From Methanomassiliicoccales archaeon (GTDB lineage: Archaea; Thermoplasmatota; Thermoplasmata; Methanomassiliicoccales; UBA472), in assembly GCA_036504055.1 (NCBI GenBank), contig DASXVU010000004.1, positions 28,202-92,201 on the forward strand: a DNA stretch of 64,000 bases. Reading direction: 5' to 3'. Positions 13,665 to 28,258 of the stretch are shown here, piece after piece; position 1 is the first letter of the stretch; each line of letters opens with the position of its first letter. Position numbers and translations under genes: made by a program. The notes beneath the pieces were generated by a model that worked only from the letters and a program-made list of their open reading frames with translations, searched no databases and had not been told where the DNA came from.

Positions 13665-14261
13665 TCAGAAAAGCACAGCATCGGCGAACTGAGGCAGCTG
13701 GACCTTGACCAGGTCGAACTGACCGTCCGAGAAGCTCAGAATGACATGCATCTTCAGGTCGATACCGTCAGACTCGCTTCCCATATAGAAGACCGAGTTG
13801 GTATGGAAGTTCAGCCACAGGTTGGCCTGGGACAGATCCCCGTTGACCGGTATGTCGGTATGGAGCACCAACTGGACGTTCTTTGAATCGATCGCCATGA
13901 CGACGTTCTTCTCCGTATCAAGCAAGGCTATGGTCCCATGCCAGTTGATATGCAGGTTAACATCGAAGTGGTCATTCTTCTCCTTCGCCATGACGTTCAT
14001 GTGGGCCGTCCCATTGATGAAAATGTATTGGATCCCGCTATCCAGGAACTGTTGAAGCGGAACTATCTCATTAAGCATCGCCAATTGTTCATCGGTCAAT
14101 TGGACTTGGTAAAGGTCGATGGTCAACGAATCGACCTTCACATTGTCGACCATCCGATAGTCCGGGCTCTTGGCTTGAGCAGGCGCTACGGCGAAGGCCA
14201 TTATGAGCATTGGCATCAACACGGCCAGCACTAAAAGTTTCACTAGGTTCTTAGCGTTCAT
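13665..14261 (-). CDS. Exported hypothetical protein
   Basis: 198 aa with an N-terminal signal-like sequence MNAKNLVKLLVLAVLMPMLIMAFAVAPAQA. I recognise no family. Confidence 0.55.
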   Translation of the reverse strand: MNAKNLVKLLVLAVLMPMLIMAFAVAPAQAKSPDYRMVDNVKVDSLTIDLYQVQLTDEQLAMLNEIVPLQQFLDSGIQYIFINGTAHMNVMAKEKNDHFDVNLHINWHGTIALLDTEKNVVMAIDSKNVQLVLHTDIPVNGDLSQANLWLNFHTNSVFYMGSESDGIDLKMHVILSFSDGQFDLVKVQLPQFADAVLF

Positions 14262-14439
14262 GTCTAGTCATCCCCCTTAGGATGCCTTATCATCGGTCTC
14301 AATCGGTATATACTGATGGAGGCCATTTCAAGAAATGAAAATAGCGGAAGAGATCCGCGAAACTAACGGGATTGTGACAAAACCCGCGGAGCTGGAATGG
14401 TCTGAAATCTAGAATCCAGTATCATTGCTGGTCAGAAAC

Positions 14440-14447
14440 AATTATAT
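14440..14447 (+). promoter_or_regulatory. TATA-box-like element upstream of tRNA-Ala
   Basis: AATTATAT lies about 29-36 nt upstream of the first tRNA nucleotide, which is the spacing expected for an archaeal TATA box. Confidence 0.4.
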
Positions 14448-14475
14448 CCCAAGTAGTGTTCCCTGTCAATACATT

Positions 14476-14550
14476 GGGCTGGTAGATCAGCGGAAGATCG
14501 CTGCCTTCGCAAGGCAGAAGCCGGGGGTTCGAATCCCCCCCAGTCCACCA
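14476..14550 (+). tRNA. tRNA-Ala (anticodon CGC) with genomically encoded CCA
   Basis: Manual cloverleaf: acceptor GGGCTGG/CCAGTCC including the Ala identity pair G3:U70; D stem GATC/GATC; anticodon stem CTGCC/GGCAG with loop TTCGCAA (CGC); T arm GGGGG-TTCGAAT-CCCCC; discriminator A plus CCA. Total 75 nt. Confidence 0.9.
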
Positions 14551-15509
14551 TTTTCCTGGCTAACCTCGATTCCTCCCTTTTTCGGGAGAAACACACTGGC
14601 CTGATATGCTGCATAGAGGTCTTCTGCAGCGTTCATATCCTCGAAATCTAGACCGAGGTACTTCATTGTCGTTCTTGTATCGGCGTGACCGAACTTCCTT
14701 GCTATGAGCTCTATCGGCACCTTTGCCCGATACATCATGCGACCGCAGGTCCTTCTTAGATCGTGGTTGGAGAAATGGAATCCTACCCGTTCCCCGATCT
14801 TGTTCAGGATCTTCTCGATGGCGCTCTTCTGATAGGCATGCAGTTGTCCGTTCCGCTGATAGATCAGCAGCTTATCCGGAACGACTACCGCCTTGTTCTT
14901 TTTCCTCGCCTTCGCGATCTCCCGGTCCCTTATCTCAAGGTACTCTTCGAGAACTGCTATCGTCTCCGGATGCCAGTTGATGTCCCTGGGCTTTCCTCCA
15001 TACCTTCCCTTACCTAGAAGGTGAACGGAATTGATCCGTCCGCTGGAGAAATCGCTGGCCTTCAGACGTATGAGCTCGATCCGTCTCATTCCGAGGTCTA
15101 GCTCGCAATGGACTATCATCTTCTCAATCCCCCGAACATTCATCTTTACTGTCATTGCTTGCTCATCCGTCAGCCATCTTACCCTTGACGATCTTAGGTT
15201 CCCGAATCCTATCTTGATCTTTGCTACCTCTTGATTACCAGTCCATTTCAGGAAACCCATCAGCATGGATACCATGTTCGCCTTGTACCGCTCTGATCTC
15301 CCGACTAGGAAATCATTGCGAATGTAATTAATCTCGGGCCTTCCCATCTTTCGAGGGTTCAGCTCGAGCTTGGCATCCTGTAGGGCTTGAAGGATGGTCT
15401 TTAGAGCCCATTTGTAGTCACGGATCGTGACCTCGCTCCTATTCCCATCCCTTAGCTCTTGCAGATAGGCATCTAGCTCCCTGCCGAGGGAATACCATGC
15501 CGTTGGCAT
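14487..15509 (-). CDS. int: Tyrosine recombinase / integrase
   Basis: 340-aa ORF. Catalytic residues lie in GMRRIEL (R), HLLGKGRYGGK (K), NHDLRRT (HxxR) and GHADTRTTMKYL (H...Y). The last ~20 codons are antisense to the tRNA and att core, so they are read-through rather than a domain. Confidence 0.9.
   Translation of the reverse strand: MPTAWYSLGRELDAYLQELRDGNRSEVTIRDYKWALKTILQALQDAKLELNPRKMGRPEINYIRNDFLVGRSERYKANMVSMLMGFLKWTGNQEVAKIKIGFGNLRSSRVRWLTDEQAMTVKMNVRGIEKMIVHCELDLGMRRIELIRLKASDFSSGRINSVHLLGKGRYGGKPRDINWHPETIAVLEEYLEIRDREIAKARKKNKAVVVPDKLLIYQRNGQLHAYQKSAIEKILNKIGERVGFHFSNHDLRRTCGRMMYRAKVPIELIARKFGHADTRTTMKYLGLDFEDMNAAEDLYAAYQASVFLPKKGGIEVSQENGGLGGIRTPGFCLAKAAIFR
14532..14550. repeat. 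attL core: 19-bp direct repeat AATCCCCCCCAGTCCACCA (3' end of the tRNA-Ala)
   Basis: A perfect second copy lies at 27411-27429. The sequences flanking the two copies are unrelated. Confidence 0.85.
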
Positions 15510-15659
15510 TAGTTCCCCTCAAAGACATGATAAACAGTGTGAGATACAAATTCTCTCGCTCCCGACCTACCCCCGTACCCCTTTCTTGTTAACTTGTTAA
15601 CTATTTGGGATACTGGCAAGCGAGTTAGGACGAGGTAAATCACGTTTTTCGCCTTCTAA

Positions 15660-18179
15660 CTATTTTGAACCCTGTTCACTGGACGATTTCGTTCTGTCGC
15701 CGAATTTTTGCAAATTGGACCTATATGCCAGTTCGAATTGCTCAACGTTTTTGAAGAAAGAAAGATTGCCGGTTCCTGGTTCAGCAACAAACCCCATGCC
15801 TTTCAAAAGGTTGGTGACAGTTCGGGTCTTTACCTCTTCGTTGAAATTGTCTCCAGTCTGCTTGAGATCGGTGTTCAATTGGTCGGTTACATTCCTGGTG
15901 CTAATATCCACGATAGCTTTCGCTCTCATTTTATCCTTGGTCAACGGCTCCTTTTCGATGGTTGATTGTTTCTCTACCTTCTTGAATTGTGAATTAAACT
16001 CGGATTGAAGGGCATAAAAGACCCTAGCCGACATAGAATCCTTGAGCTCGGCACCGGAAACTCCTTGAGACCGGGCAATGAAGGAAACAATATCATTTTG
16101 CCCTCCCGCTATCAGGGCAGCCGTTAAAATGCTCCTTGCGTTGTCCTTCGATCTGTCTTCCAGTTTTATTGTCGTGCCGTCCAATTCGATTGGAGCACTG
16201 ATCTCCTTGTTCACCTTCTGGAGGTATGAATCAAAGTCGATCTTCCCCGACAATACCCTGAGCCTTAACGATAATAACCTAGTCCTCAGGTCTTCGCTCC
16301 CATCCAGATCTCCCCGTTCCTTCAGCTCTATTTCCTTGGGTTTCTGGAGCATCGTTATGATAAGCGAGCGGTTCTGGTTGTCATCATCGGGCAGCTTATC
16401 CCGTATGCCAATCAGCATCGGTGAGTACAGGTCGTAAAGGTCAACTCCCCCATTCTCGTTCACTCTCGGGACACTGTAGCCTTTCTGATACCCTCCATTG
16501 AAAACAGCTGCCATCTCCAGCTTTCTTTCCTTTGGTATCTTCTGGTATTCGTCCTGAAAAACCGTTATTCGGTAGGACTGGATAAGACGGAAGAGCGCCG
16601 CAGGGGTAGAATCGATAAGTTTTGCCCCCCGGTAAGTCAACATCTGAAGAGTCTCACCGCAGCAGGATTTTCCTACAGTGGTCGTACCGACGATGATCAC
16701 TCTAGGGGAGATCTCGAATTGGTCGAAAATCCAAGAAAATATCACCCAGGCAGCTAGCGTCGAATAAGCTGACTCATCGCTGAACCAAACCCGTTTTCTA
16801 ATGAATTCGGTAATATCTTCCAATAATTTCGGGTCTGGCTCTCTCATATTAGGGCGAGATGGAAGGGGCCAACACATGCTGGAGAATTTACTTTCCAGTT
16901 GATGAGCCAGTTCCTTATTCTCTTTTTCCCATTCGATAAATGACCTGATTGGGTTATCCTTGAAGGATGGTATGACAAAACCTAATCCGTTATTGGGGTC
17001 TTGAAATGGCTCTGCATCGAAGATTTGTTTTGAGTAGATCGGTTTCTTTCCTTTTTTGCTAGTTGAAGATTTGTCGGTCGGGGTTTCGTCCTGGAACGAT
17101 GGATTATCCTGCTTCAATGGGCATTTCTTCCAGTCGCAGACCTCTTCCCCGAAAGTCTCCTTGATGGGACCGCAGCCGGGATGGTTGGATTTCTCGCCTT
17201 TGTAAGCCGATTTGAGGGTTTCCAGGCAACCCTTTTCGAGCTCGTTATCATACCCCTGGCACTTGTGAGCATAGGTGACCATGTCCTTTTGCGCTTTAGC
17301 CTGAGGGACATCCATCAACAAGTTGAACCGGGCAATCCGATAGGCTCCAGGATTCCTGAGCCCCTCTTTCATCCCTTGCATCAGATGATAGTAACAAGGG
17401 ATTGCATCCAGTTCAGAAACAATGGAGAGAGGTTGAGAATCATCTTTTTCTGCCGATTCTATGAATCTCTGTATCTCCCCGTTGATCAGCTCGGACAATT
17501 CTGTTATATCCCATTGGTGAATTGATCCGGTCCAAGGCATCTGGAACTTTATGGTGTCCTTGGTCGGTCTTTCTTCGGGAATATCATCGATCCATGTTTT
17601 TCTGCTGCCGTTGTCCCTTAATGAACCGAACTCCCTTATCATATGGCCTTTCCCGCTTGGGTATGATCTCCAACTGATCGCTGAAGGGTCTAGCCCTGCC
17701 AGTTTGATATCGATTCCAGAGTCGTTGATAATCAGGTCATAAACAGTTTCCCTCATGATCTTGAGCGGGTCTATCTCGAGCTCCTGGACCTTATCAAGCA
17801 GGACCTTATTGATTTTCAGAGTACCGGCATCAATGAAAACATGGACATGGATACCTTTTCCTCCAGACCATCCGGAGATATACGGAACGGCCTCGCTCTC
17901 TAGGTAAGAGATCAGCTTTCTGGCCTCGACCTTTAGCACATTCCAATCTTTTTGGTCGAAATCGAATACCAGCTCATTTGGCAAGATCGTTCTGGCGATG
18001 ATGAGTTGGGTCTGGTTGCCTATAATGGGCATCCAGCGTCCTCTCAGGTCCGGCGAATATTGGACCATGATGGGGCTCTTGAACTTGGTCGAAAGATGGC
18101 CGAGCTCGTTTAGCCAAATCTGTTGGTCCTTGATCACTTTGGCGTTTAGATTATCATCAATAGGGGGAAGGTCGGTCAT
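15660..18179 (-). CDS. Replication protein: archaeo-eukaryotic primase-polymerase domain fused to a P-loop (SF3/D5-like) helicase domain
   Basis: The likely start is MTDLPP at 18179, preceded by GGAGGTTTAAC; the tracked ORF extends to 18242. AEP motifs are LVFDFD, SGGKGIHVHVF and GLDPS. The central region is Cys-rich. Walker A is GTTTVGKS and Walker B-like is ITVFQDEY. Confidence 0.8.
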   Translation of the reverse strand: MTDLPPIDDNLNAKVIKDQQIWLNELGHLSTKFKSPIMVQYSPDLRGRWMPIIGNQTQLIIARTILPNELVFDFDQKDWNVLKVEARKLISYLESEAVPYISGWSGGKGIHVHVFIDAGTLKINKVLLDKVQELEIDPLKIMRETVYDLIINDSGIDIKLAGLDPSAISWRSYPSGKGHMIREFGSLRDNGSRKTWIDDIPEERPTKDTIKFQMPWTGSIHQWDITELSELINGEIQRFIESAEKDDSQPLSIVSELDAIPCYYHLMQGMKEGLRNPGAYRIARFNLLMDVPQAKAQKDMVTYAHKCQGYDNELEKGCLETLKSAYKGEKSNHPGCGPIKETFGEEVCDWKKCPLKQDNPSFQDETPTDKSSTSKKGKKPIYSKQIFDAEPFQDPNNGLGFVIPSFKDNPIRSFIEWEKENKELAHQLESKFSSMCWPLPSRPNMREPDPKLLEDITEFIRKRVWFSDESAYSTLAAWVIFSWIFDQFEISPRVIIVGTTTVGKSCCGETLQMLTYRGAKLIDSTPAALFRLIQSYRITVFQDEYQKIPKERKLEMAAVFNGGYQKGYSVPRVNENGGVDLYDLYSPMLIGIRDKLPDDDNQNRSLIITMLQKPKEIELKERGDLDGSEDLRTRLLSLRLRVLSGKIDFDSYLQKVNKEISAPIELDGTTIKLEDRSKDNARSILTAALIAGGQNDIVSFIARSQGVSGAELKDSMSARVFYALQSEFNSQFKKVEKQSTIEKEPLTKDKMRAKAIVDISTRNVTDQLNTDLKQTGDNFNEEVKTRTVTNLLKGMGFVAEPGTGNLSFFKNVEQFELAYRSNLQKFGDRTKSSSEQGSK

Positions 18180-18403
18180 GTTAAACCTCCCATTGCGATC
18201 ATGCGACGGGCCTCCGGGCTCCCCCATCGATAATACTTCCAAAAGAATCCGTCAAACTCATTCGACGGTAGATGGGTTATGAACTCAACGAGCTCGTCTT
18301 GGTCTTTAGCCCAACCGTAGGCTACCCAACAGTAGCTATACCCGTTCGGTACGACTTGAAGATTGTTTCTTTTCTTGGTTGTGCATCCTTCCCTTTCTGA
18401 CAT
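18176..18403 (-). CDS. Hypothetical small protein (75 aa)
   Basis: The ATG at 18403 is preceded by AAAGGAGGTTCAATC. Its stop overlaps the primase-helicase start. W/Y-rich, no family recognised. Confidence 0.5.
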   Translation of the reverse strand: MSEREGCTTKKRNNLQVVPNGYSYCWVAYGWAKDQDELVEFITHLPSNEFDGFFWKYYRWGSPEARRMIAMGGLT

Positions 18404-18625
18404 GATTGAACCTCCTTTTTGAAAGAATTTGTTCGCCTTCCTGTTCCGCTTTTTTTCTACCCTCCACAGAGCCGTTTTTATACACAAAACTCCTGGACTT
18501 TTTCTCCATTTTCAGGCGGCTTTCGACGGTCTTTCCATCGCAGTATGGCATTGATCACCGCAATAGCAAAACCAGAGGTCAAAGGCAAGTTGTTTCACCC
18601 CTCGAGCTCGTGTTGTCGATGATCT

Positions 18626-18823
18626 TCATAGGATCACCGCAAAAGCGATCCCAATTCCCAAAACCGCCCCTCCGCAGCCGAACAACAACCGCAATCGTCT
18701 TCCGATTCCGGTGACTCCGAGCAGCAACATCATACCGGCGCTTGTGGTCGCCATCGCTGATAGGATGACAAGAGCGAATCCGGCCGGGCCGGTCGAGCCG
18801 AGGAAGATGTCGGGAAGTGGCAT
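18626..18823 (-). CDS. Small hydrophobic (two-helix) membrane protein
   Basis: 65 aa, almost entirely hydrophobic and Gly/Ala-rich. Its start overlaps the upstream stop by 1 nt (TAATG). Confidence 0.45.
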   Translation of the reverse strand: MPLPDIFLGSTGPAGFALVILSAMATTSAGMMLLLGVTGIGRRLRLLFGCGGAVLGIGIAFAVIL

Positions 18824-19110
18824 TATTGCTCATTCCTCTTCTTTTCCTCTTCCTTTTCCTCATCCCCATCATCTTGGAGTTTGTACAATTTCACTCGGCG
18901 AAAATATGAATGTCGAACGAGGGCCAGATGTGGGTCCGTCTGTTTCGGGATACCCGACAGGGTTAGGTCTGGACCGAGTCCCAATTGTGATTCCAAGTCG
19001 GTTTGGCACTTTGAGGAACAATAAATCGGAATGAAATCCCTCGAATTCACCGTGATTGAAAACTTTTTCAAGCATCCTGGACACTTGCGGGTTAGCTCAA
19101 TCGAGGTCAT
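18823..19110 (-). CDS. Small Zn-ribbon protein with an acidic/basic tail
   Basis: 95 aa. CPGCLKKF...YCSSKC gives four Cys ligands. The C-terminal tail is DDGDEEKEEEKKRNEQ. Its start overlaps the RHH gene stop (ATGA). Confidence 0.55.
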   Translation of the reverse strand: MTSIELTRKCPGCLKKFSITVNSRDFIPIYCSSKCQTDLESQLGLGPDLTLSGIPKQTDPHLALVRHSYFRRVKLYKLQDDGDEEKEEEKKRNEQ

Positions 19111-19280
19111 TGTGCCACCGCCTTTATCTGGTTCTCCGTCGCCTCTGCTCGTATTCCCTGCACCACAAAAACCCGTGCCAGGGTTCTTGGAGGCAGGTCT
19201 TTCCTTTGCGCCACCCGATTAAGCTTTTCAATGTCCTCCGGGTCGAGGCTTATCGTATACGGCACCTTTGCCATAGACAT
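19107..19280 (-). CDS. Ribbon-helix-helix (CopG/Arc-like) protein, 57 aa; below the ORF-track length cut-off
   Basis: My own translation: MSMAKVPYTISLDPEDIEKLNRVAQRKDLPPRTLARVFVVQGIRAEATENQIKAVAQ. It has a beta-strand followed by two helices. It is the first gene of the minus-strand operon, and its stop overlaps the next ATG. Confidence 0.6.
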   Translation of the reverse strand: MSMAKVPYTISLDPEDIEKLNRVAQRKDLPPRTLARVFVVQGIRAEATENQIKAVAQ

Positions 19281-19319
19281 TAGAAACTGTTATAATCTAG
19301 ATAAATTATTAGCAATATC

Positions 19320-19343
19320 TTGATAACAATAAATTGATAACAA
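19320..19343. promoter_or_regulatory. Two perfect direct repeats TTGATAACAA (14-bp period) in the divergent promoter region
   Basis: TTGATAACAAtaaaTTGATAACAA lies in the 78-bp gap between the RHH gene (start 19280, minus) and the 424-aa gene (start 19359, plus). Confidence 0.4.
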
Positions 19344-19358
19344 AGTTGGTGAAAAATC

Positions 19359-20633
19359 ATGTCCAGTATTCTTCTTAGCCCGAAAGAAAAGAAATTTCTT
19401 GAAGAAGCAAAGTATAGATACAATTTACCTGCGACTCCAAGTGAAAGAGTATTCATTTCAAGGCTGGATAAAAAAATAGAAACGAATCTTCCATCCTCCA
19501 TTATTGATTTCTTGGTAGATCTGAGTCTCGTATCCAATTATTATTCCTATAAAAATCCTGAGATCAAGAATGAAATGATAGAAAGTATGGTGCAAATTTT
19601 TTATCCCACTTATGTGGCGAGCATGATACAAAACTGGATGCCAAAAGATGCTAAAATGGAATTATTGAGGATTCTTATGGAGCAGAATGACCCCCGAGAG
19701 ATTATGGGTGTCTTCACAAGATACCTTAATGATTGTGAGTTTCATGACTTTGAAGACCCGGAAAGGGAGATTCTGGTCCTCGAAGATGATAAGAATAAGA
19801 TTGTCTCTGAGATGATGGATTTCATTAACTTAACATCGGACAAGGATTGTATTTACAGAGATGAAAGACCACTCTATACTCATGATCGAGAAAGAATCAA
19901 TGTAATGTATTTTGTGTCAAAAGAAGCTAGAAAAAAACTTGCCCTAATTAACTCAGATTCATATTCAGGCGAGATCAAATATGCTCCAATCGAGATTCGT
20001 AATGCTCTCGGCAAACGATTCGGAGTAACAATAATATTTAGAGTCAATTGGATAAAAGCGGTATTGATATCACTATTCAATGTTGATCTGGATGGCAGCA
20101 GGTGGTGGGATGAATTGGAAAGGGGAAGGTTCGGAATAATAAGACGTGGAAGATTTCTAGAATATCAAACAGTAGTAAGAAGTGAGAAGGACATTATCAG
20201 CAGAATTTTCAGGGTAATCTCTGATTTATGCAACAACGGCATCGAAATAGGGTCACCGAAGTTAATGTTTCAATATACGGTTATTAAACCGGATTTTAAT
20301 ACCGCTCAGTTCTTCGTTGGTAGGGGAAGACCAATTAAGACGATAGGAGGAAAAGAAATAATTCCATATGATGAAAAAAACCCATTCCAAATTAGATTGG
20401 AGAAGGAGATAAAACGGGCAATCGAGGCATTAAATGAACAAGGAATTATAAAACGTAAACGTGGAATCAAACCGAACTATTTCATACCCACAGATTCACT
20501 AAAGGCGATTAGAGATTCGGGTGTTTTTCATAAATCTCCCGATGACGTCACAGAAAAAAATGTTGCATTATTGCCAGGAGAGTTGATGATAACCTTTGAT
20601 CACCTTATTCAGGAAATTGATATCAAAGAATGA
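19359..20633 (+). CDS. Hypothetical protein, 424 aa, orphan
   Basis: A long uninterrupted ORF in a markedly AT-rich stretch. I recognise no motif. Confidence 0.65.
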   Translation: MSSILLSPKEKKFLEEAKYRYNLPATPSERVFISRLDKKIETNLPSSIIDFLVDLSLVSNYYSYKNPEIKNEMIESMVQIFYPTYVASMIQNWMPKDAKMELLRILMEQNDPREIMGVFTRYLNDCEFHDFEDPEREILVLEDDKNKIVSEMMDFINLTSDKDCIYRDERPLYTHDRERINVMYFVSKEARKKLALINSDSYSGEIKYAPIEIRNALGKRFGVTIIFRVNWIKAVLISLFNVDLDGSRWWDELERGRFGIIRRGRFLEYQTVVRSEKDIISRIFRVISDLCNNGIEIGSPKLMFQYTVIKPDFNTAQFFVGRGRPIKTIGGKEIIPYDEKNPFQIRLEKEIKRAIEALNEQGIIKRKRGIKPNYFIPTDSLKAIRDSGVFHKSPDDVTEKNVALLPGELMITFDHLIQEIDIKE

Positions 20634-20635
20634 AA

Positions 20636-20803
20636 TTACCCTTTCTTAATGAATACCTGGCCTTTTTCACCCTCATAGAATAGGATGTGGTCACCGTCAT
20701 TAATGCCCATCAGATCGGCCGCATCTTTTACCAAGCTGATCCGCAACTTGGAACTGACCTTCGATGACCCAAGGAATTTCATTTCTGACTTGGTTTCGGG
20801 CAT
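20636..20803 (-). CDS. AbrB/SpoVT/MazE-type swapped-hairpin DNA-binding protein, 55 aa; not in the ORF track
   Basis: My own translation: MPETKSEMKFLGSSKVSSKLRISLVKDAADLMGINDGDHILFYEGEKGQVFIKKG. LRISLVKDAADLMGINDGDHILF..E.GQVFIKK matches the AbrB-like pattern (basic strand, ..lGi..GD.l...). An in-frame stop lies at 20852-20854. Confidence 0.55.
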   Translation of the reverse strand: MPETKSEMKFLGSSKVSSKLRISLVKDAADLMGINDGDHILFYEGEKGQVFIKKG

Positions 20804-20807
20804 AATA

Positions 20808-20878
20808 CCTATATTGGAGATAATGGAGAAATATACATATATCCTTTCCCCCTATATTGTCGCAATCTCCAATATAGG
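20808..20878. promoter_or_regulatory. 13-bp perfect inverted repeat CCTATATTGGAGA / TCTCCAATATAGG plus a third half-site
   Basis: Copies are at 20808-20820 and 20866-20878, with a partial CCTATATTG at 20851-20859. All lie in the gap between the AbrB-like gene and the 145-aa gene, and the TATA-like cores suggest divergent promoters or an operator. Confidence 0.4.
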
Positions 20879-20898
20879 AGATAACATGAGGTAATGAC

Positions 20899-21336
20899 AT
20901 GGATTGGAAAAACAATGATTGGCCTATCTATTGCGAGACTAGCCTGGTATTGGAGCTCGACGTTGAGCATGATCAAGAGGACCTGGAAAAGCTGAAAGAG
21001 GAATTGAAGCAAGGCATTCTCGCTTGGGCCAGGGAAAAGAAGCGGAACGAGCATGTAATGAGGGTTAGGGATATTGTCATGAAAGAGACGGTCAGGGATG
21101 ACTATGGCGTGATCCAGAGCCATATCGAGACCGTGAACGCTAGAGCGAACAATATTGATAACATAGCAAAACCGAATCGGCAGGAATTCAACCCCTTAGT
21201 CAATATCAAGGTCGAGATTGGCCGAACTGTCCCCGATTCGGTGGCCAATGAGATCATGGAAGAAATGGACCAGGAGCGGGAGATCATCCACAGTATCCTT
21301 GAAACCGTCAAGGTCGAACGGGTCGAAATCAATTAG
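20899..21336 (+). CDS. Hypothetical acidic protein, 145 aa
   Basis: The ATG is preceded by GAGGTAATGAC. E/D/K-rich and probably helical; no family recognised. Confidence 0.55.
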   Translation: MDWKNNDWPIYCETSLVLELDVEHDQEDLEKLKEELKQGILAWAREKKRNEHVMRVRDIVMKETVRDDYGVIQSHIETVNARANNIDNIAKPNRQEFNPLVNIKVEIGRTVPDSVANEIMEEMDQEREIIHSILETVKVERVEIN

Positions 21337-21805
21337 GAAACAATAAAGCTGGTTTGGACGGTTTCTAGAACGTCCGGACCTTTCTTTTCTCTGAAAATGT
21401 CAAAGGTGACCCGGCCGTTTGCACGACCGGCCGGATCGGGGGTTCAATCCCAATAGTATAATATAAATCGTTATTATTAAATGTATCACATTAACACATC
21501 TTCACTCGATTGCTTAGATCGATAATGGACTTTAATCAAGATATGTGCAACGATTTGAGAATTGCTATTCTGGCTGCAATAGATGTTCTGTGGACAAGTC
21601 TTGCATTTGTCCGAAATGCAGGTAAATAGGCCATAACAGCTAGGGACAGTGACGGGGACTGGCCCCCGTCCTGTCCATGGGGTACGAATGGTCTGAACCG
21701 CTGGCATGATTTGGTAATGTGTTTCAGGTTAATAATAATGATGTTAGCTTAACAATGGAAGTGAATAAAAGGAAAAGATTTGGTGTCACCTTCTCAAAGG
21801 ATTGA

Positions 21806-22330
21806 TTAGGTACTGGAAAGATAAACACGGATCATGCCACTTGTGACAGCTGTCCCAAATGGAGTGCTCACCTTAAGACTGTAGGATGTGGTCTCTCCCG
21901 GCGCCAACGAGACATCCTGAGTTTGTCGATATGTGTTCTGACCTTCAGTAATGTCCACATGAATGTTCTTCGATCCGATCGCATCTCCAGTATTGGTCAC
22001 TTTGACTGTTACTGTTGTTGCCCCCAGGACGCTTTGGGAATATGTTGAACTCACTACCTGCAGATTCGGCTTGGGACCGATCAAAGCAGATCCCCCATCG
22101 TTCCCTCCGGGTCGCACTGCGAGAACGACCAACAGAATGACGATAATAATTGCGACTATAGCTATTACGCCGATTATCAGGCCTCTTTTTCTCTTCGGTT
22201 TAGGGGCCGGTTGTTGATAATACTGTGGCGGCATTTGTTGATATCCAGGTGGCGGCTGTTGATATGTAGGTTGTTGCGGTTGCTGCTGATATGGACCTTG
22301 GTTTGGTTGGTTTAATTCCTCGTTCCCCAT
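21806..22330 (-). CDS. Single-pass membrane protein: Q/P-rich N-terminus, TM helix, Ig-like (CARDB-like) ectodomain
   Basis: 174 aa. The N-terminus is QQQPQQPTYQQPPPGYQQMPPQYYQQP, followed by KRKRGLIIGVIAIVAIIIVILLVVLAV. The ectodomain LQVVSS...TVTVKVTNTGDAIG...LAPGETTSYSL resembles the CARDB strand pattern. Confidence 0.6.
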   Translation of the reverse strand: MGNEELNQPNQGPYQQQPQQPTYQQPPPGYQQMPPQYYQQPAPKPKRKRGLIIGVIAIVAIIIVILLVVLAVRPGGNDGGSALIGPKPNLQVVSSTYSQSVLGATTVTVKVTNTGDAIGSKNIHVDITEGQNTYRQTQDVSLAPGETTSYSLKVSTPFGTAVTSGMIRVYLSST

Positions 22331-22418
22331 TTAGATCTCCGACGATTCTAGTCGGTCATATATCCTAAAACTATGTTCAAAATTATCAATTGTGAAACGA
22401 TTCTTCGATGTATCTAAC

Positions 22419-22534
22419 GTTACATAATACTCTATTTTGTAACATTATCTTCATTCCATAAGACCTGGGTTATATACTAACTCAGTTTGTTTGTATCGTT
22501 ATGTTACATTATTAATACTGTTTGTAACAATATC
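22419..22534. repeat. Two ~31-bp direct copies of a palindrome-containing motif (GTTACAT..AATACT..TTTGTAACA.TATCT)
   Basis: Copy 1 is at 22419-22449 and copy 2 at 22503-22534. Each contains GTTACA N13-14 TGTAAC. Both lie in the divergent gap between the CARDB-like gene and the short recombinase, and copy 2 ends 20 nt before its ATG. Confidence 0.5.
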
Positions 22535-22553
22535 TACCTGGGAAGTACAGACA

Positions 22554-23111
22554 ATGAGAGAGGGAATGCGATCAAAGGATGATGCTCTGAACGACCTCGA
22601 GCTCGATACTTTGTTGAAGGCGGCAGACCCGGACGATCCAAGGGAGGCTTTGATTATCCTTCTCGCCGGTGATCTCGGACTCAGGGAGGGGGAGATCTCC
22701 GCTTTGAGGTCCTCTTGGATCAACTTCCAACGTGGACACATCATCATACCCTCGAAAAGCGAACAGGGATGGACTCCTAAGCGTCCTGACAGCGCTAGGA
22801 CCATTCCGGCCTTGAAGATGTCTCCGAGAGCGTGGGAAGCGGTAAGAACGTACTTCACGGCCCATCCCTCGCTCGATATGACCCGCATGACGGTCTATCG
22901 GATAGTGCAGAAGGTCGCATTGAGGTCAGAGCTCAAGAGGAAGATCTATCCCCATTCATTGAGGGCGACAGCAGCGACACGACTTGCTTACAAGATCACT
23001 AACCCGGTCATCCTTTGCGATCTGTTCGGTTGGAAGCAGCTCAAGATGGCCGAGTATTACATCCGGAGAGCAGGGGGAAGGGCCGAGCTCGAACTTGATA
23101 AGATACTTTGA
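22554..23111 (+). CDS. Short tyrosine recombinase (catalytic domain only, ~185 aa)
   Basis: The likely start is MREGMRSKDD at 22554; the tracked ORF begins at a TTG at 22491. Motifs are GLREGEISALR (R), HSLRATAAT (HxxR) and GWKQLKMAEYYIR (W/H...Y). There is no N-terminal core-binding domain. Confidence 0.75.
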   Translation: MREGMRSKDDALNDLELDTLLKAADPDDPREALIILLAGDLGLREGEISALRSSWINFQRGHIIIPSKSEQGWTPKRPDSARTIPALKMSPRAWEAVRTYFTAHPSLDMTRMTVYRIVQKVALRSELKRKIYPHSLRATAATRLAYKITNPVILCDLFGWKQLKMAEYYIRRAGGRAELELDKIL

Positions 23112-23113
23112 AC

Positions 23114-23872
23114 TCACATTGCATTCATAATGGCATTCTCCTGCAATTGAGCCATGGACCTGACCCAATCTGTGTTTAATGCATAGCTACCAGAATAATA
23201 TTCGAGTTGATTCATACAAACTACATTGTTTTCTCTAAAAAGAATCGAGTATACATGAGGCTGGGATGAAGTAGACGACGCTTGATACATGTCATCCCCC
23301 AGTCCGCTATTAGTAATATGGGCCATTGGAACGCTCGAACTGGATGAGACGGTGGTTGAAACGAAGTTTTTAGCATCATCTATACTGTAGAAAACGATGG
23401 CTGCGGATCCAAACATAGCTCCGCTCGAAGATTGTTGAGAGTACCCATTATGATATGTTACGATAGATGAACTTCTTGCCGATACCACACTAGGCATGGA
23501 TGCGGTTGACTCGTAAGTCCACCCAGATGGCATCATACCGGCATTCGCTGTAAAACTGCTTGATGAATTTGTCAACAAAGTCGTGTTATCAGCTGAACCT
23601 TTGTTCGTAGGCGAAAGAACAACCAATGCAACAATGACCAGAACAACGGCAATCGCCACTACCGACACACCAATAACAACTTTTCGACTTCTCTTCTTGA
23701 CCGAGGGTTCTGAAATATAGGGCTGTTTCGGTTGAGTTTGCACCGGTTGGCTGCTCGAATCTACTGTTGATTGGATTTTCTTTCCACACTTGGGACAAAA
23801 CGTAGATTCCATTTCAAAGGAAGATCCGCAATCTGAACAGAATTTTCTAGGAATCTGATCTGTATTCTCCAT
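23114..23872 (-). CDS. Single-pass membrane protein: N-terminal Zn ribbon, TM helix, S/T-rich ectodomain
   Basis: 252 aa. The zinc ribbon is CSDCGSSF...FCPKCGKKI, followed by RKVVIGVSVVAIAVVLVIVALVVL and then an extracytoplasmic domain of unknown family. Confidence 0.6.
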   Translation of the reverse strand: MENTDQIPRKFCSDCGSSFEMESTFCPKCGKKIQSTVDSSSQPVQTQPKQPYISEPSVKKRSRKVVIGVSVVAIAVVLVIVALVVLSPTNKGSADNTTLLTNSSSSFTANAGMMPSGWTYESTASMPSVVSARSSSIVTYHNGYSQQSSSGAMFGSAAIVFYSIDDAKNFVSTTVSSSSSVPMAHITNSGLGDDMYQASSTSSQPHVYSILFRENNVVCMNQLEYYSGSYALNTDWVRSMAQLQENAIMNAM

Positions 23873-24031
23873 ATCTCCACCACGACGCCTGAAAACGGCG
23901 TAATATGTGGGAGTTTGTGCAAGAGCTTAATGGTTGGCCTTGGTCTTGAAATGTGATAATGAAATGGAAATCATACTGTCTCATCGTTCATCATTCATTT
24001 CTTTCCCTTCATCAATTGACTTCAATACACT

Positions 24032-24178
24032 TCAAAGGATTGCGTGAGAGCCGTATACGAAAACTATCTTCTCTCCATTAATCTTCCAACGACCTTTGAT
24101 ATCGCCCTTTGCCTCGACTTTTACGATGTTCTCAGCCCCGCATTCAGGGCAGGGTATCTCTTCCCATTCTCTGCTCAT
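24032..24178 (-). CDS. Possible small protein, 48 aa (CPEC motif); not in the ORF track
   Basis: My own translation: MSREWEEIPCPECGAENIVKVEAKGDIKGRWKINGEKIVFVYGSHAIL. GGGTGATC lies directly upstream of the ATG. It is on the same strand as the downstream Zn-ribbon membrane gene. Confidence 0.3.
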   Translation of the reverse strand: MSREWEEIPCPECGAENIVKVEAKGDIKGRWKINGEKIVFVYGSHAIL

Positions 24179-25062
24179 GATCACCCGGACCAGGCATCAT
24201 ATCTAATCCGTTGCTTTGAGAGATGAGTGAAAGTGCCGTCCCTATACCATATAGGCGGCGCTTTAAAACGTAAAACATTACCGACCCAGTCTGATATCCT
24301 CGTTTTTTCTGGTTAAGTAACTATTGGTTGGAATAGTGTTGTCCTGTTTCCCATATAAAGGCGGCGCAGAATATGGAATAGAATATCAATCCAGACTGGG
24401 ACCTCCATATTCACTTGATAAATACTTACCCTAATATCAAACGGATCGGGTTTCCAATCCTCTATCATATAGGGAGGCTGCCAATTGCCAAAGAACTATA
24501 GCCAGACATCAAGAACGGATGGAAGAAGTATATTAGTTTGAGCTGACCGTTTTAAAAAGGGGTATGGAAACAGGGACCGCCTCGAACGTCATTATCATTG
24601 ACTGGCTAGGGTTAGGTAGTGGATGGTAAAGGGGCCGGAATAGATTGGGATAACCTCGACCGGGGATCGGAGCAGGTCCTTGATATTATTGAATAATACA
24701 TTAATAATCTGGAATAGGTTTTGATTAGTGATTAGGGCCACCATATATAGGGGCAGTTATTCGTTTCGGATCTAAAAGAAAGAATGTGGCCGGGCATGGT
24801 TGGGATGATCGGGAGCCGATGAATTGGTTTGGATCGTTCTTTTATTCTCTAAAATGTAGCCTGTACTATATATTGTGGCGCCTGTGCATTGTAAAATACA
24901 ATTCCAGATTATTATGAATGATACAAAATAGACTATGATGGAACAACCTCGAAAGACAAAGTAAGACGAACATGAGTACTCATCATTATTGAAGTATTCT
25001 GATATAATATCAATAACACAAATATTTACATAACAACACTTATTCAAACCACAGGGGAAAGG

Positions 25063-25746
25063 ATGTTTAGGAGAGCATGTTCAACTAATCGAGAATCAAT
25101 TTATGGTGTTCATGGATTTTCAATTATTGGAGATAACTTACAAGCCAATACCATTGGATCTGGATTTACTATAGCTCCGGGTATCATAGTAACGGCTGGT
25201 CATTTAGTCCATCTTGATAGCGATGCGAAGAAGAGCATCCAAACGAGTTTTGATGTGATTAGGTCTCCTGATATTGGGCAAGGGACTGAAAAGGCAGAAT
25301 TTATTGCCGAAGATTCAGAGTATGATATAGCCTTGCTAAAGATTGTTAATCCAAGATCGGCTAAATTTCTTACTTTGGAACCTAATAAAATACAGACTGG
25401 TACGAATTGCGGCTCTCTAGGATTTCCACTATGTTCTTTTGACAATAATGGATTCCACCTTGTCGAACGTTTTCAAGGATCTTATGTTTCCTGCTATTCT
25501 CAAGGGATTTCACCAAAGGGGAAACCTGTTTATCAATATGAAGTCGATTCGTTGATGTATAAAGGTTCGAGTGGATGCCCTGGTTTTCTAATGAGCGGGG
25601 TTGTTATTGGTATGCAGAGCAGCTACCAGATGAATCGGGAAGGGCAGGATGGCAAAATGTCACAACTAGCAATCTCGAACTGGGTACCATCGATGGAAAT
25701 TATTAGGTGTGCTAAAGCTAATGGAATTAAAATTGGAAAACGGTAA
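25063..25746 (+). CDS. Trypsin-like (chymotrypsin-fold) serine protease, cytoplasmic, paralogue A
   Basis: 227 aa. The triad contexts are GSGFTIAPGIIVTAGHLVH (His), YDIALLKI (Asp) and GSSGCPGF (Ser). No signal peptide, TM helix or PDZ domain. Confidence 0.8.
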   Translation: MFRRACSTNRESIYGVHGFSIIGDNLQANTIGSGFTIAPGIIVTAGHLVHLDSDAKKSIQTSFDVIRSPDIGQGTEKAEFIAEDSEYDIALLKIVNPRSAKFLTLEPNKIQTGTNCGSLGFPLCSFDNNGFHLVERFQGSYVSCYSQGISPKGKPVYQYEVDSLMYKGSSGCPGFLMSGVVIGMQSSYQMNREGQDGKMSQLAISNWVPSMEIIRCAKANGIKIGKR

Positions 25747-25840
25747 TTTATCCAGCATCGAATCAACTCGAATAAGACTCTGAATGATTGTTCGACTTCT
25801 TTTTTAATCCTTGGAGGTACTAAAGAATCACACAAGACCA

Positions 25841-25920
25841 GAACAGTTTCGTGCCGTTCTCCCTACTGTTCCTTGGAGCCAGCATCATTCCCGGAACAGT
25901 AGGAACAGTAAGAACAGTAA
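25841..25920. repeat. GAACAGT repeat cluster: three tandem GAACAGTA units, one upstream direct copy and an 11-bp inverted repeat
   Basis: GAACAGT at 25841-25847. CCTACTGTTCC at 25862-25872 is the reverse complement of GGAACAGTAGG at 25893-25903. GAACAGTA occurs at 25894, 25903 and 25912 (9-bp period). The cluster sits in the 338-bp gap between the convergent protease genes. Confidence 0.6.
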
Positions 25921-26084
25921 CTTACAACTTCTAAAGAGAAAAGAAAAAGACTGCAAAGGGTTTGGCAACCCCAAATTACACGAATTATCGTTATTGATCT
26001 GAAATCACGACTTACTGGATGCCCGTTGTTTCCAGTCCGGGCAGACCCGCCATTATTCCTATTATCTTACGTAAATTACTAGGG

Positions 26085-26768
26085 TTATACCGATATTCCG
26101 TTTTTCCTGGCCAATTTGATTATGTCCATGGAAGGAATCCAAAGAGACATTGTCACTCGATCGTTGTCCACCGGGGCAAAATTATCTTTGCCACCACGAC
26201 TTAACATACCAAATACTCTTGAATTGGAAAGGAAACCTGGACATCCACTTGAGCCCTCAAACATCATTGATTCACATTCATAATAATCAATAATTGATCC
26301 ATTTTGCGATGCTTTTTGATAACATGCCGAGATATATGACCCCTGAAACCTCTCTAGGAAATTTGCCTGATTCCCCTTTTCAGTTTTTACTAAGTGACTT
26401 AATGGAAAGCCTAATGAACCACAACTTGCCCCATTAGGTGCTCGGGAAGGTTCTAAGATAAGAAATTCCCTCGATCTAGGTTCTTCTATCCTCAATAATG
26501 CAATATCGTGATCGAGATCTTGTGCGATAAAACTTACTTTTTCAAATGGTTTTTCCATATCAGGTAATCTGATAGTCAAAAGAACTGGCTTCTCGGAATC
26601 TTTCATTTCTGTATCGTGATGAATTACATGAGCGGCGGTAACTAATATTCCCGGGGCTATTGTAAATCCCGACCCGAAAGCATGTGTGTATAGATCATTT
26701 TCACCTTTTATGGGAACGCAAATTCCGTAAACAGAATCTCTGGTTTCTTTGTACGCATTTCTAAACAT
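26085..26768 (-). CDS. Trypsin-like (chymotrypsin-fold) serine protease, cytoplasmic, paralogue B
   Basis: From its first ATG (26768) it is 227 aa, the same length as paralogue A; the tracked ORF begins at a TTG at 26801. Triad contexts are GSGFTIAPGILVTAAHVIH, HDIALLRI and GSSGCPGF. Its N-terminus MFRNAYKETRDSVYG parallels MFRRACSTNRESIYG of A. Confidence 0.8.
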   Translation of the reverse strand: MFRNAYKETRDSVYGICVPIKGENDLYTHAFGSGFTIAPGILVTAAHVIHHDTEMKDSEKPVLLTIRLPDMEKPFEKVSFIAQDLDHDIALLRIEEPRSREFLILEPSRAPNGASCGSLGFPLSHLVKTEKGNQANFLERFQGSYISACYQKASQNGSIIDYYECESMMFEGSSGCPGFLSNSRVFGMLSRGGKDNFAPVDNDRVTMSLWIPSMDIIKLARKNGISV

Positions 26769-27057
26769 GATAGATAGACTGGATACAATTCGAAGTATCA
26801 AACTTGTACCTCATATTACTGACTTTGTTATTAGGAATTCTTACACGATCTCCGCTCCCGGTTTGGACCGTCTATTCGGATTTACCAATTTTGTTAACTC
26901 CTAACTCCTATCTAACTGGGTTTTTAACTTTGTCATCCAGCATTAACAGAATTAACTGAATAGTTAGATAGTTAGAAGAAAGAGGGAGTAAGATAGATAA
27001 GAAAAATTGGACAAATAATTAAGGCAAGATATCTCGTAGCATTCTTAGGTGTGAGTC

Positions 27058-27288
27058 TTGGGGAAGACATACAAGGACAAGAAAGGCTATATTAGGTGGA
27101 GCGACAGCGGGAAGCTGGTGCATAGGACCGTGGCCGAGAACATGATCGGAGGTCCGATAGGAAAGGGAAGGGTTGTCCACCACAAGGATGGGAACAAGAG
27201 TAATTTCAGAAAAGGCAATTTGTTGGTTATGAGTAGAAGCGAACATTCATCCCTTCACGCTAAGAAAAAGAAACATTGGTTCTGGTAA
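27058..27288 (+). CDS. Small HNH endonuclease
   Basis: 76 aa with a TTG start. VHHKDGNKSNFRKGNLLVMSRSEHSSLH matches the HNH (H-N-H) motif. Confidence 0.75.
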   Translation: MGKTYKDKKGYIRWSDSGKLVHRTVAENMIGGPIGKGRVVHHKDGNKSNFRKGNLLVMSRSEHSSLHAKKKKHWFW

Positions 27289-27410
27289 AATAAAAAAATT
27301 GAAAATGGTTTGCGACGGTTTGTTATTCCGTTTTATCTCTCAAACCCTCGGCGGGGCTTTTCCTGAATTAGGGAGAAATCGGTCGTTAACCAGTCGGTTT
27401 TATGGAGGGT

Positions 27411-27429
27411 AATCCCCCCCAGTCCACCA
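27411..27429. repeat. attR core: second copy of AATCCCCCCCAGTCCACCA
   Basis: Identical to 14532-14550. It is followed by host-type sequence containing an oligo-T tract. Confidence 0.85.
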
Positions 27430-27450
27430 CTACGCATATCCAGAAATATA

Positions 27451-27511
27451 TTTTTGAGATTCAATAACGGGTCTCTGTGTTTTTATTGAATCGGACTCTT
27501 TGTAGGAGTCC
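27451..27511 (+). terminator. Displaced tRNA terminator region: T5 tract followed by two hairpins
   Basis: TTTTT at 27451-27455, 22 nt after the att core. The hairpins are GATTCAATAA...TTATTGAATC (27458-27492) and GGACTC...GAGTCC (27493-27511). This may also serve the convergent cupin gene. Confidence 0.35.
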
Positions 27512-27561
27512 TTGAGCTGTTTGCCCGCGACATTTGTCTTTTGGCTCGATCTCACGTTCGG

Positions 27562-27906
27562 CTAAGGACTGGTTTCTTTTTCGAAAGAGTAGAAGTCCAC
27601 CGCTTCATCCCCTACCACCCATGCATCGTGTCCAGGAGGGATGTCTATCACATCACCAGGGACTACGTCGACTTCCTGTCCATCGTTAGCCCTGATCCGG
27701 AGGCGACCCTTGATCTGGATAGCGAAGTGGTGGAGTTGACAAGTGGCCGTGCCAGCGAAAGGGCTGACATCCTTCGACCATTTCCAGCCGGGTTCGAAGG
27801 TATATTTGATTGCCACGAAGTCCCCTATCTTCACCCTCTCCGCTCTGGTCAATGGTGGTGTCATTACGGAGTCTGGTTTGTTGAAGTTCTTCTTCTCGAT
27901 AGTCAT
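27562..27906 (-). CDS. Cupin domain protein
   Basis: 114 aa. HHFAIQIKGRLRIRANDGQEVDVVPGDVIDIPPGHDAWVVGDE matches the two cupin motifs. Confidence 0.7.
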   Translation of the reverse strand: MTIEKKNFNKPDSVMTPPLTRAERVKIGDFVAIKYTFEPGWKWSKDVSPFAGTATCQLHHFAIQIKGRLRIRANDGQEVDVVPGDVIDIPPGHDAWVVGDEAVDFYSFEKETSP

Positions 27907-28258
27907 GTAAATTCCTTAGTATTCGCTTGACAGTTCTTGGTATTAGAATAATCGTTCGATTGGTGAACCGAGTATGTCATTAAAGGGCGGAAAGAAGAAG
28001 TCAAGAGGAAAACAGAAAGACGAAGGGATTGTTATCCTTCTAACCCTCTTCAAGAGTGAATTTCCCGACCCTGGGCAGAATTGATGGTCGGCCATTCGGA
28101 GTTGTTGGTCGAACACCGACCTTGTCCACTTTTTGTTCTTCTATCTAATGCCTACTTCAAACGTTCTTCATTCCTCTCTTCGCAAGAAAAATGAATGCGC
28201 GATGGCGATCGCCGCCCCAACGGCCCACTACGATGAGGGAAGAGACCTTGTTTAAGCT

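Follow-up and report, generated by a model that had tools for sequence, protein, structure and literature searches.

The question raised by this locus is whether two protease genes and a nuclease gene that lie side by side at the end of a mobile element work together as one system. The genes are carried by a 12.9 kb element integrated in the tRNA-Ala gene of a Methanomassiliicoccales-type archaeon (assembly GCA_036504055.1, contig DASXVU010000004.1, positions 28,202 to 92,201), and coordinates refer to this window, the whole stretch of 64,000 nucleotides that was analysed, unless another locus is named. The two genes for trypsin-like proteases, A and B, and the gene for a small HNH endonuclease sit at the right end of the element, by the attachment site attR. 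A preliminary description of the window, made from the sequence alone, had proposed that the three genes form an undescribed conflict or maturation module. The best explanation, held here with good confidence, is a plainer one: A and B are two intact, independently transcribed accessory-cargo copies of a stand-alone HtrA-type protease family, which form no dedicated system with each other or with the HNH gene.

25063 to 25746, plus strand: protease A, 227 amino acids (aa), a stand-alone HtrA-like (Trypsin_2) serine endopeptidase with the triad H47/D88/S170
26085 to 26768, minus strand: protease B, 227 aa, a diverged paralogue of A with the triad kept
27058 to 27288, plus strand: HNH_3 endonuclease, 76 aa, divergent from B

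The open reading frame (ORF) of B could extend to a TTG at 26801 (26085 to 26801, 238 aa). The ATG at 26768, which gives 227 aa, was taken as the start because all aligned homologues begin with MF at residue 1.

Fold, catalytic residues and domain content

A and B are 45% identical over their full length (BLASTP, expectation value (E) 8e-67), and every sequence block that had been quoted as common to the two paralogues is present. The suspected membership of a Pfam trypsin family was borne out for both proteins, which match Trypsin_2 (PF13365) over profile positions 1 to 144 of 144, with 49.3 bits for A and 50.3 bits for B against a gathering cut-off of 27.6, and which also pass the Pfam Trypsin model, more weakly. 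In an alignment of family members, H47, D88 and S170 (A numbering) are invariant in 27 of 27 sequences, and four further motifs are invariant or nearly so: the N-terminal MFxxACxxxRExIYG, CGSLGFPL, ERFQG and GSSGCPGF. A profile built from the 27 members matches HtrA1, HtrA2, DegP and Rv3671c in the PDB, with the best E at 3.4e-8 for HtrA1 and the triad in register with that of HtrA1, such that the His, Asp and Ser contexts are kept as had been claimed.

The AlphaFold2 (AF2) model has a mean predicted local distance difference test (pLDDT) score of 92 and a predicted template modelling (pTM) score of 0.89. Deg2, HtrA1, Rv3671c, DegP and DegS take the top ranks of a Foldseek search with this model (E about 1e-12 to 1e-13), and VIA-align superposes it on DegP with Z 25.9 and a root-mean-square deviation (rmsd) of 2.2 Å over 192 residues, spanning model residues 1 to 223. 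Both marks of an HtrA-type (S1C) protease, the chymotrypsin fold and a His-Asp-Ser triad in an HtrA-like context, are thus found.

Little room is left for anything else in the proteins. Pfam finds no PDZ domain in A or B, the protease domain fills the 227 aa, and the model ends with a helix at residues 210 to 219. No signal peptide or transmembrane helix is seen by eye in the sequence or in the AF2 model, where helix 3 to 12 is packed on the domain and is followed by strands, although no dedicated predictor was run; the preliminary description had likewise found no signal peptide, membrane helix or PDZ domain. Neither protein carries a fused sensor. The nearest clusters in the ESM Atlas are unnamed 'S1 family peptidase' groups of 214 to 234 aa, which add no function, and a fold search of BFVD returned generic trypsin-fold viral proteins only, none closer than HtrA. 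These searches show A and B each to be an HtrA/DegP-type (S1C, Trypsin_2) protease domain and nothing else.

By this likeness, each protein would act as an autonomous Ser-His-Asp endopeptidase in the cytoplasm. It would probably form an HtrA-like oligomer by way of the conserved N-terminal segment, as suggested by the model, which aligns from residue 1 onto the N-terminal region of DegP. HtrA proteases prefer small or aliphatic residues at P1, and by analogy A and B would probably cleave after such residues.

Separate genes without a conserved partner

The genes for A, B and the HNH protein alternate in strand, with gaps of 338 bp and 289 bp, and therefore make up three separate transcription units. 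The HNH protein matches HNH_3 at E 1e-12 (47.9 bits, Pfam threshold 24.8) and the HNH families of PHROGs down to E 4e-14. It is a small homing-type nuclease, unrelated to the proteases. Its gene is single-copy in its own genome, and A and B are the only copies of the protease family there.

A linkage census was made on 125 loci outside the window's own genome (44 genome loci, 80 metagenome loci and one relative that duplicates L003), 783 kb in all. Flanks of 6 to 8 kb on each side were fetched; many of the metagenome contigs are short, and the median locus has 4,963 bases. All ORFs of at least 50 aa were searched with a hidden Markov model (HMM) of the family. One family gene is found per locus (44 of 44 genome loci, 125 of 125 in all), and a second at 0 of 125. 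At the four loci with double matches (L039, L044, L046 and L108), a frameshift or an in-frame stop has split one gene, which suggests that the gene is sometimes being lost. An HNH homologue is likewise found at 0 of 125 loci (phmmer, E<=1e-3). When ten proteins of the element were used as queries (the integrase, an 860-aa primase-like protein, five ORFs without an above-threshold Pfam match, a CARDB membrane protein, a short second integrase-like protein and the HNH protein), phmmer gave no match at E<=1e-3 in the 783 kb.

All-against-all clustering of neighbours of at least 70 aa found no family-wide partner beyond synteny at the level of single lineages. Five Bathyarchaeia loci (L024, L025, L029, L032 and L039) have in common divergent NucS and metallo-β-lactamase (MBL)-fold genes, the protease gene and an MFS gene; neighbours are also common to four Bacteroidota loci and to two Methanomicrobiales loci. 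The stable synteny in Bathyarchaeia and Bacteroidota suggests vertical inheritance there. As a test for a toxin-antitoxin arrangement, a conserved small partner was sought among flanking ORFs of 25 to 130 aa and none was found, the largest cluster having five loci, all from Bathyarchaeia.

In short, A, B and the HNH gene form no dedicated or conserved system. The preliminary description had held that its module would fall if the homologues proved to be ordinary housekeeping proteases scattered in host chromosomes and unlinked to each other, to HNH genes or to mobile elements, or if they lacked the catalytic residues. On linkage to each other and to the HNH gene, the module falls. The homologues do keep the catalytic residues, and they are not ordinary housekeeping genes, given that they are rare and patchy (of 261 genomes in the host's order, 2 have the gene) and that a minority of them lie among defence genes. 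For this reason the single gene may yet have a role in conflict.

A small and patchy family

The family is a small, rare and patchy group of uncharacterised proteins of about 230 aa. A word-indexed search found 186 proteins at E<=1e-3, with lengths of 191 to 272 aa among the 120 matches listed. With B as the query, an exhaustive search of cluster representatives of all lengths gave at least 150 clusters at E<=1e-3, of which 95 reach E<=1e-10 and 29 reach E<=1e-30. In nearly all of the matched clusters residue 1 is aligned to residue 1, and the few longer proteins are distant. The relatives at the 44 genome loci, which come from one-genome-per-species contigs, belong to Thermoplasmatota, Methanomicrobia, Bathyarchaeia, Bacteroidota, Planctomycetota, Chloroflexota, Patescibacteria, Nitrospirota, Clostridia and others. 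One of the two genomes of the host's order that have the gene is the window's own, and the gene is absent from all seven further genomes of the same genus. No relative was found among 71 pattern matches in IMG/VR or in 72,556 plasmids, and 50,697 phage records gave two weak matches (24 to 27% identity).

In a maximum-likelihood tree A and B share a subclade of 22 rows, in which B joins three other rows (moderate support, 91/83) and A lies in the same polytomy without being the sister of B. The pair would have arisen by an old duplication or by two separate acquisitions, and the tree does not favour either origin.

Gene contexts and the question of a conflict role

The neighbours within two genes of the protease were compared with Pfam for the 44 genome loci (154 proteins) and the 80 metagenome loci (145 of 167 proteins, the other 22 being scanned separately or belonging to near-duplicate loci). 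The PADLOC comparison covered 134 proteins, comprising 133 of the 154 genome-locus neighbours and one more distant MBL gene. A restriction-modification (R-M), Abi, TIR, immunity or insertion sequence (IS) gene lies within two genes at 19 of the 111 loci that have neighbours:

L004, L057, L070, L075, L091 and L092: type I HsdS directly downstream
L010: AbiEi/AbiEii beside the protease gene
L013: MNT-type nucleotidyltransferase
L031: Mrr-type nuclease
L037: capH-capP directly upstream
L093, L099 and L127: DNA methylases
L090: IS110 and TIR
L125: abutting AAA_15/AAA_21 ATPase
L117: HsdR fragment
L114: Imm33 and DMP19
L018 and L096: IS200

These contexts bear on the rival that survives best, in which each protease gene is a single-gene defence or abortive-infection system: a cue from an invader activates the protease, an essential protein of the host or invader is cut, and two copies widen the range of cues or targets. 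This is a serious possibility, although a minority one. It is in keeping with the patchy distribution across bacterial and archaeal phyla, with the position as cargo beside an att site of a mobile element, and with the best PADLOC matches of A and B, which are the protease domains of defence proteins: the retron type XI reverse transcriptase (RT)-protease (E 1e-13 and 1e-14), the protease-type LmuA, Avs1b and HamA, over a range of E from 1e-14 to 4e-7. All of these are matches at the level of the domain, and the view that no named system has the layout of this locus holds.

The strongest context is that of the type I R-M operons. A single clade of 7 rows, with a Shimodaira-Hasegawa (SH)-like support of 97, unites the six R-M-embedded copies with L054, a locus without identifiable neighbours, and this points to one capture event followed by diversification. 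The order of the operon is HsdM, a NYN-domain protein, a 247-aa unknown, the protease, HsdS, a 235-aa unknown and HsdR (for example, L057:1403-10488), and the start of HsdS overlaps the stop of the protease gene. This operon may be an undescribed R-M-associated accessory module. In one Bryobacterales contig (L037:1-9736), the protease gene directly follows capH-capP on the same strand, in an island where it is flanked by a divergent gene for a 1036-aa Prok-E2/ThiF/JAB/patatin fusion and by a large serine recombinase gene. At L125:1593-4187, the stop codon of the protease gene abuts the start of the gene for a 634-aa AAA_15/AAA_21/SMC_N ATPase, and the two are possibly a two-gene unit.

MBL genes are neighbours in 7 loci, the five from Bathyarchaeia and two with rhodanese-MBL fusions, and none has a PADLOC match at E<=1e-8. 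These adjacent genes were considered as candidate pro-nucleases and rejected, as they are ordinary Lactamase_B or rhodanese-MBL genes, which in Bathyarchaeia lie in an operon with NucS.

Against single-gene defence, neither protein has a sensor domain, 92 of the 111 loci have no defence-type neighbour, and the synteny in Bathyarchaeia and Bacteroidota suggests vertical descent there. Several further points weigh against the preferred explanation itself, either against its leaning towards conflict or against the independence of the two copies. Most neighbours are ordinary or belong to no family (TBP, NucS, AlaRS, LysRS, DnaB, S6, RNR, GlnA, ThiC and transporters). The figure of 19 of 111 stands without a background control, and identical proteins (L004=L057, L091=L092) are counted in it. 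The window's own subclade lies outside the R-M clade, and its members L003=L051, L050, L052, L053 and L056 have ordinary neighbours only (TBP, GNAT, a methyltransferase, PGDH and radical SAM). The PADLOC scores, at about 50 bits, are no higher than those of generic Trypsin_2, so that no special kinship to the defence proteases follows from them. As to independence, a second copy or a partner beyond a few kb could be missed on the short contigs, and A and B could yet be sisters: forcing them together costs 2.45 log-likelihood units and is not rejected by the approximately unbiased (AU) test (p 0.418). A prediction of an A/B heteromer (score 0.02, mark 0.32) weighs neither for nor against binding, and a functional heteromer could still exist.

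Taken together, the chance that the family has a conflict role as a single-gene effector, be it in defence or in competition between mobile elements, is judged to fall somewhat short of even, and the remaining probability goes to a non-conflict accessory proteolytic function. A bolder form of the idea is that this family, without PDZ domain or sensor and about 230 aa in length, is a new stand-alone proteolytic immune effector of archaea and bacteria, in which a single gene both senses the invader and cuts a vital target, and two copies stand for two cues or targets. This is doubtful. Its logic would be analogous to that of PrrC, a nuclease kept in reserve within type I R-M loci.

The divergence of protease B

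A second rival takes B to be in decay or to have a regulatory role, as a paralogue with little or no activity that either modulates A or is on its way to being lost. B does stand out in the tree, with an end branch of 1.65 compared with 0.74 for A. At 64 conserved columns, defined as those with a residue common to at least 88% of 25 other family members, B differs from the family in 11 and A in 2; the departures of B include C6Y, G72E, D166E and Y170F. The broken copies at L039, L044, L046 and L108 are a precedent for loss. B nevertheless has a full-length open frame in which the triad and the GSSGCPGF, CGSLGFPL and ERFQG blocks are intact, and its Pfam score equals that of A. Decay or a regulatory role for B is therefore regarded as rather unlikely. 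B appears to be changing at about twice the rate of A, whether under relaxed selection or because its specificity has shifted, and the explanation as two intact copies is retained. At 45% protein identity, synonymous sites between the two genes are saturated.

The three-gene module and maturation

The module of the preliminary description, such as a protease heteromer that would license or partner the nuclease, is very improbable. The three genes are near neighbours at a mobile element's att-proximal end, and the pairing of a trypsin-like protease with a nuclease proenzyme has been published (PMC12799240). The published modules combine an MBL-fold zymogen with a sensor-fused protease, whereas here a 76-aa HNH_3 protein lies beside bare proteases; the genes are three transcription units, and neither a second copy nor an HNH homologue recurs at any of the 125 other loci.

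That the proteases process the element's own proteins, for example in the polyprotein or virion maturation that had been offered as the alternative, is barely tenable. In its favour, trypsin-fold proteases do so in many viruses, viral trypsin-like proteins in BFVD match the model (template modelling score 0.6 to 0.7, at most 21% identity) and phrog_9683 'protease' is weakly matched (E 2e-7). Against it, neither a polyprotein nor a gene for a capsid, portal or terminase protein is recognised in the element, most homologues are chromosomal and away from element genes, and the virus, plasmid and phage collections hold no relatives beyond the two weak phage matches.

If the plain reading holds, two members are added to an unstudied subfamily of HtrA-type proteases, and the three-gene module is removed as a false lead. 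The wider value lies in the family, a bare HtrA-type domain of fixed size with motifs of its own, spread thinly across many phyla and with one clade within type I R-M operons. That clade is a more promising thread than the pair on the element.

The element and its attachment sites

The element shows the features of a tRNA-integrated element, namely a direct repeat of the 3' end of the tRNA gene and an integrase gene at one end:

14476 to 14550, plus strand: tRNA-Ala(CGC), the only Rfam match in 14000 to 28000
14532 to 14550: attL, the last 19 bp of the tRNA-Ala gene
14487 to 15509, minus strand: tyrosine integrase of the element, with a 3' end that runs through attL into the tRNA gene
25841 to 25920, no strand assigned: GAACAGT cluster, with five words within 78 bp (four direct, one inverted)
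27411 to 27429: attR, a 19-bp direct repeat that matches the 3' end of the tRNA-Ala gene exactly

The att repeat is perfect over 19 bp (14532-14550 and 27411-27429). It places A, B and the HNH gene in the cargo position next to attR that had been assigned to them, with the HNH gene ending 122 bp from attR, where about 120 bp had been given. On the attR side, a 43-aa ORF (27333-27464) has a repeat-encoded GGLGGI stretch in common with the integrase. Given this stretch and the reading of the integrase gene through attL, the att site is part of the 3' end of the integrase gene, so that the C-terminal tail of the protein is altered by integration.

A second ORF of the Phage_integrase family (22491-23111, 206 aa, E 8e-16) lies inside the element and consists of the catalytic domain alone. 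The right-hand 5 kb, which bears the proteases, may be a remnant of another element or an insertion from one. The 860-aa ORF that adjoins the integrase gene (15660-18242) has a sub-threshold prim-pol match (LigD_Prim-Pol, E 0.005) and is probably the replication protein of the element. For the ORFs of 424 aa and 145 aa (19359-21336), neither Pfam, PHROGs, NCBIfam nor PADLOC gives a family. The low GC content noted in the preliminary description is real: the fraction is 0.39 at 25 to 27 kb, equalled at 19 to 21 kb (0.385-0.389), and 0.55 to 0.62 in the flanks.

The spacer between the convergent genes for A and B (25747-26084) has 338 bp, as had been described, and GAACAGT words do cluster in it: 5 of the window's 9 matches fall in 25841-25918, and three copies of a 9-bp unit occupy 25894-25920. 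The count over the whole window is ordinary (9 against 5.5 expected, a number reached by 12 of 100 shuffles), so that the clustering alone is worthy of note. The spacer has no Rfam match in the scan of 14000 to 28000, and its predicted RNA fold is unconvincing (z -1.93, with 5 of 100 shuffles folding equally well). The cluster could be a protein-binding array.

Comparison with known systems

The closest likeness of A and B is to the protease domain of HtrA, DegP, DegQ and DegS (MEROPS S1C). They have in common a chymotrypsin-type fold over the whole protein (Z about 25 to 26, rmsd 2.1 to 2.5 Å, about 190 to 200 residues), the order His-Asp-Ser, and a TDxxxxxGxSGxP stretch around the catalytic Ser. 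A and B differ in that they have no PDZ domain, signal peptide (as judged by eye) or membrane anchor and are presumably cytoplasmic, and in that they have family motifs of their own, with 16 to 24% identity to HtrA proteins and a profile E of 3e-8 to HtrA1.

MarP (Rv3671c) resembles them in the size of its protease domain (Z 25.2, rmsd 1.9 Å), and its NCBIfam model is matched at E 2e-7, with a score far under the cut-off (30 compared with 250 bits). MarP, which is anchored in the membrane, works outside the cytoplasm. The HtrA-like proteases of phages (phrog_9683 and the 'HtrA protease/chaperone' of a Rhizobium phage in BFVD) are, like A and B, stand-alone trypsin folds of about 230 aa on mobile DNA, but the similarity is weak (E 2e-7 and 8e-5, at most 21% identity), and IMG/VR holds no member of the family.

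A search of the literature on stand-alone, anti-phage or type I R-M-embedded trypsin-like proteases gave no description of the family, and sensor-fused systems only. Such systems are the subject of PMC12799240 and bioRxiv 10.1101/2025.11.14.688446, whose supplements may list unfused proteases. In this recent work trypsin-like proteases emerge as common switches in prokaryotic immunity; they are described there as fused to sensors in every case (Avs1/2, HamA, LmuA and the retron-XI RT-protease) and as activating latent effectors. The gene for the zymogen effector adjoins that of the protease and codes for an MBL nuclease, an alpha/beta-hydrolase, Pepco or EACC1 (PMC12799240; bioRxiv 10.1101/2025.11.14.688446). 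Where the effector is a nuclease, it is an MBL-fold zymogen encoded upstream of the sensor-fused protease (same sources), and a trypsin-like protease is paired with a nuclease proenzyme in this way in published defence modules (PMC12799240).

Measured against such protease-effector modules as described there (Tuck 2025; Evans 2025), A and B have neither the sensor fusion (STAND, HamA, LmuA, RT and others) nor an adjacent zymogen effector, none being found among the neighbours in the window. What they have in common with the sensor-fused defence proteases is a Trypsin_2-type domain, a location that for A and B is presumably cytoplasmic, and a place on mobile or defence DNA. If an immune role is true, the sensor-less version would be a simpler variant of the sensor-fused trypsin-like switches of prokaryotic immunity portrayed in those papers.

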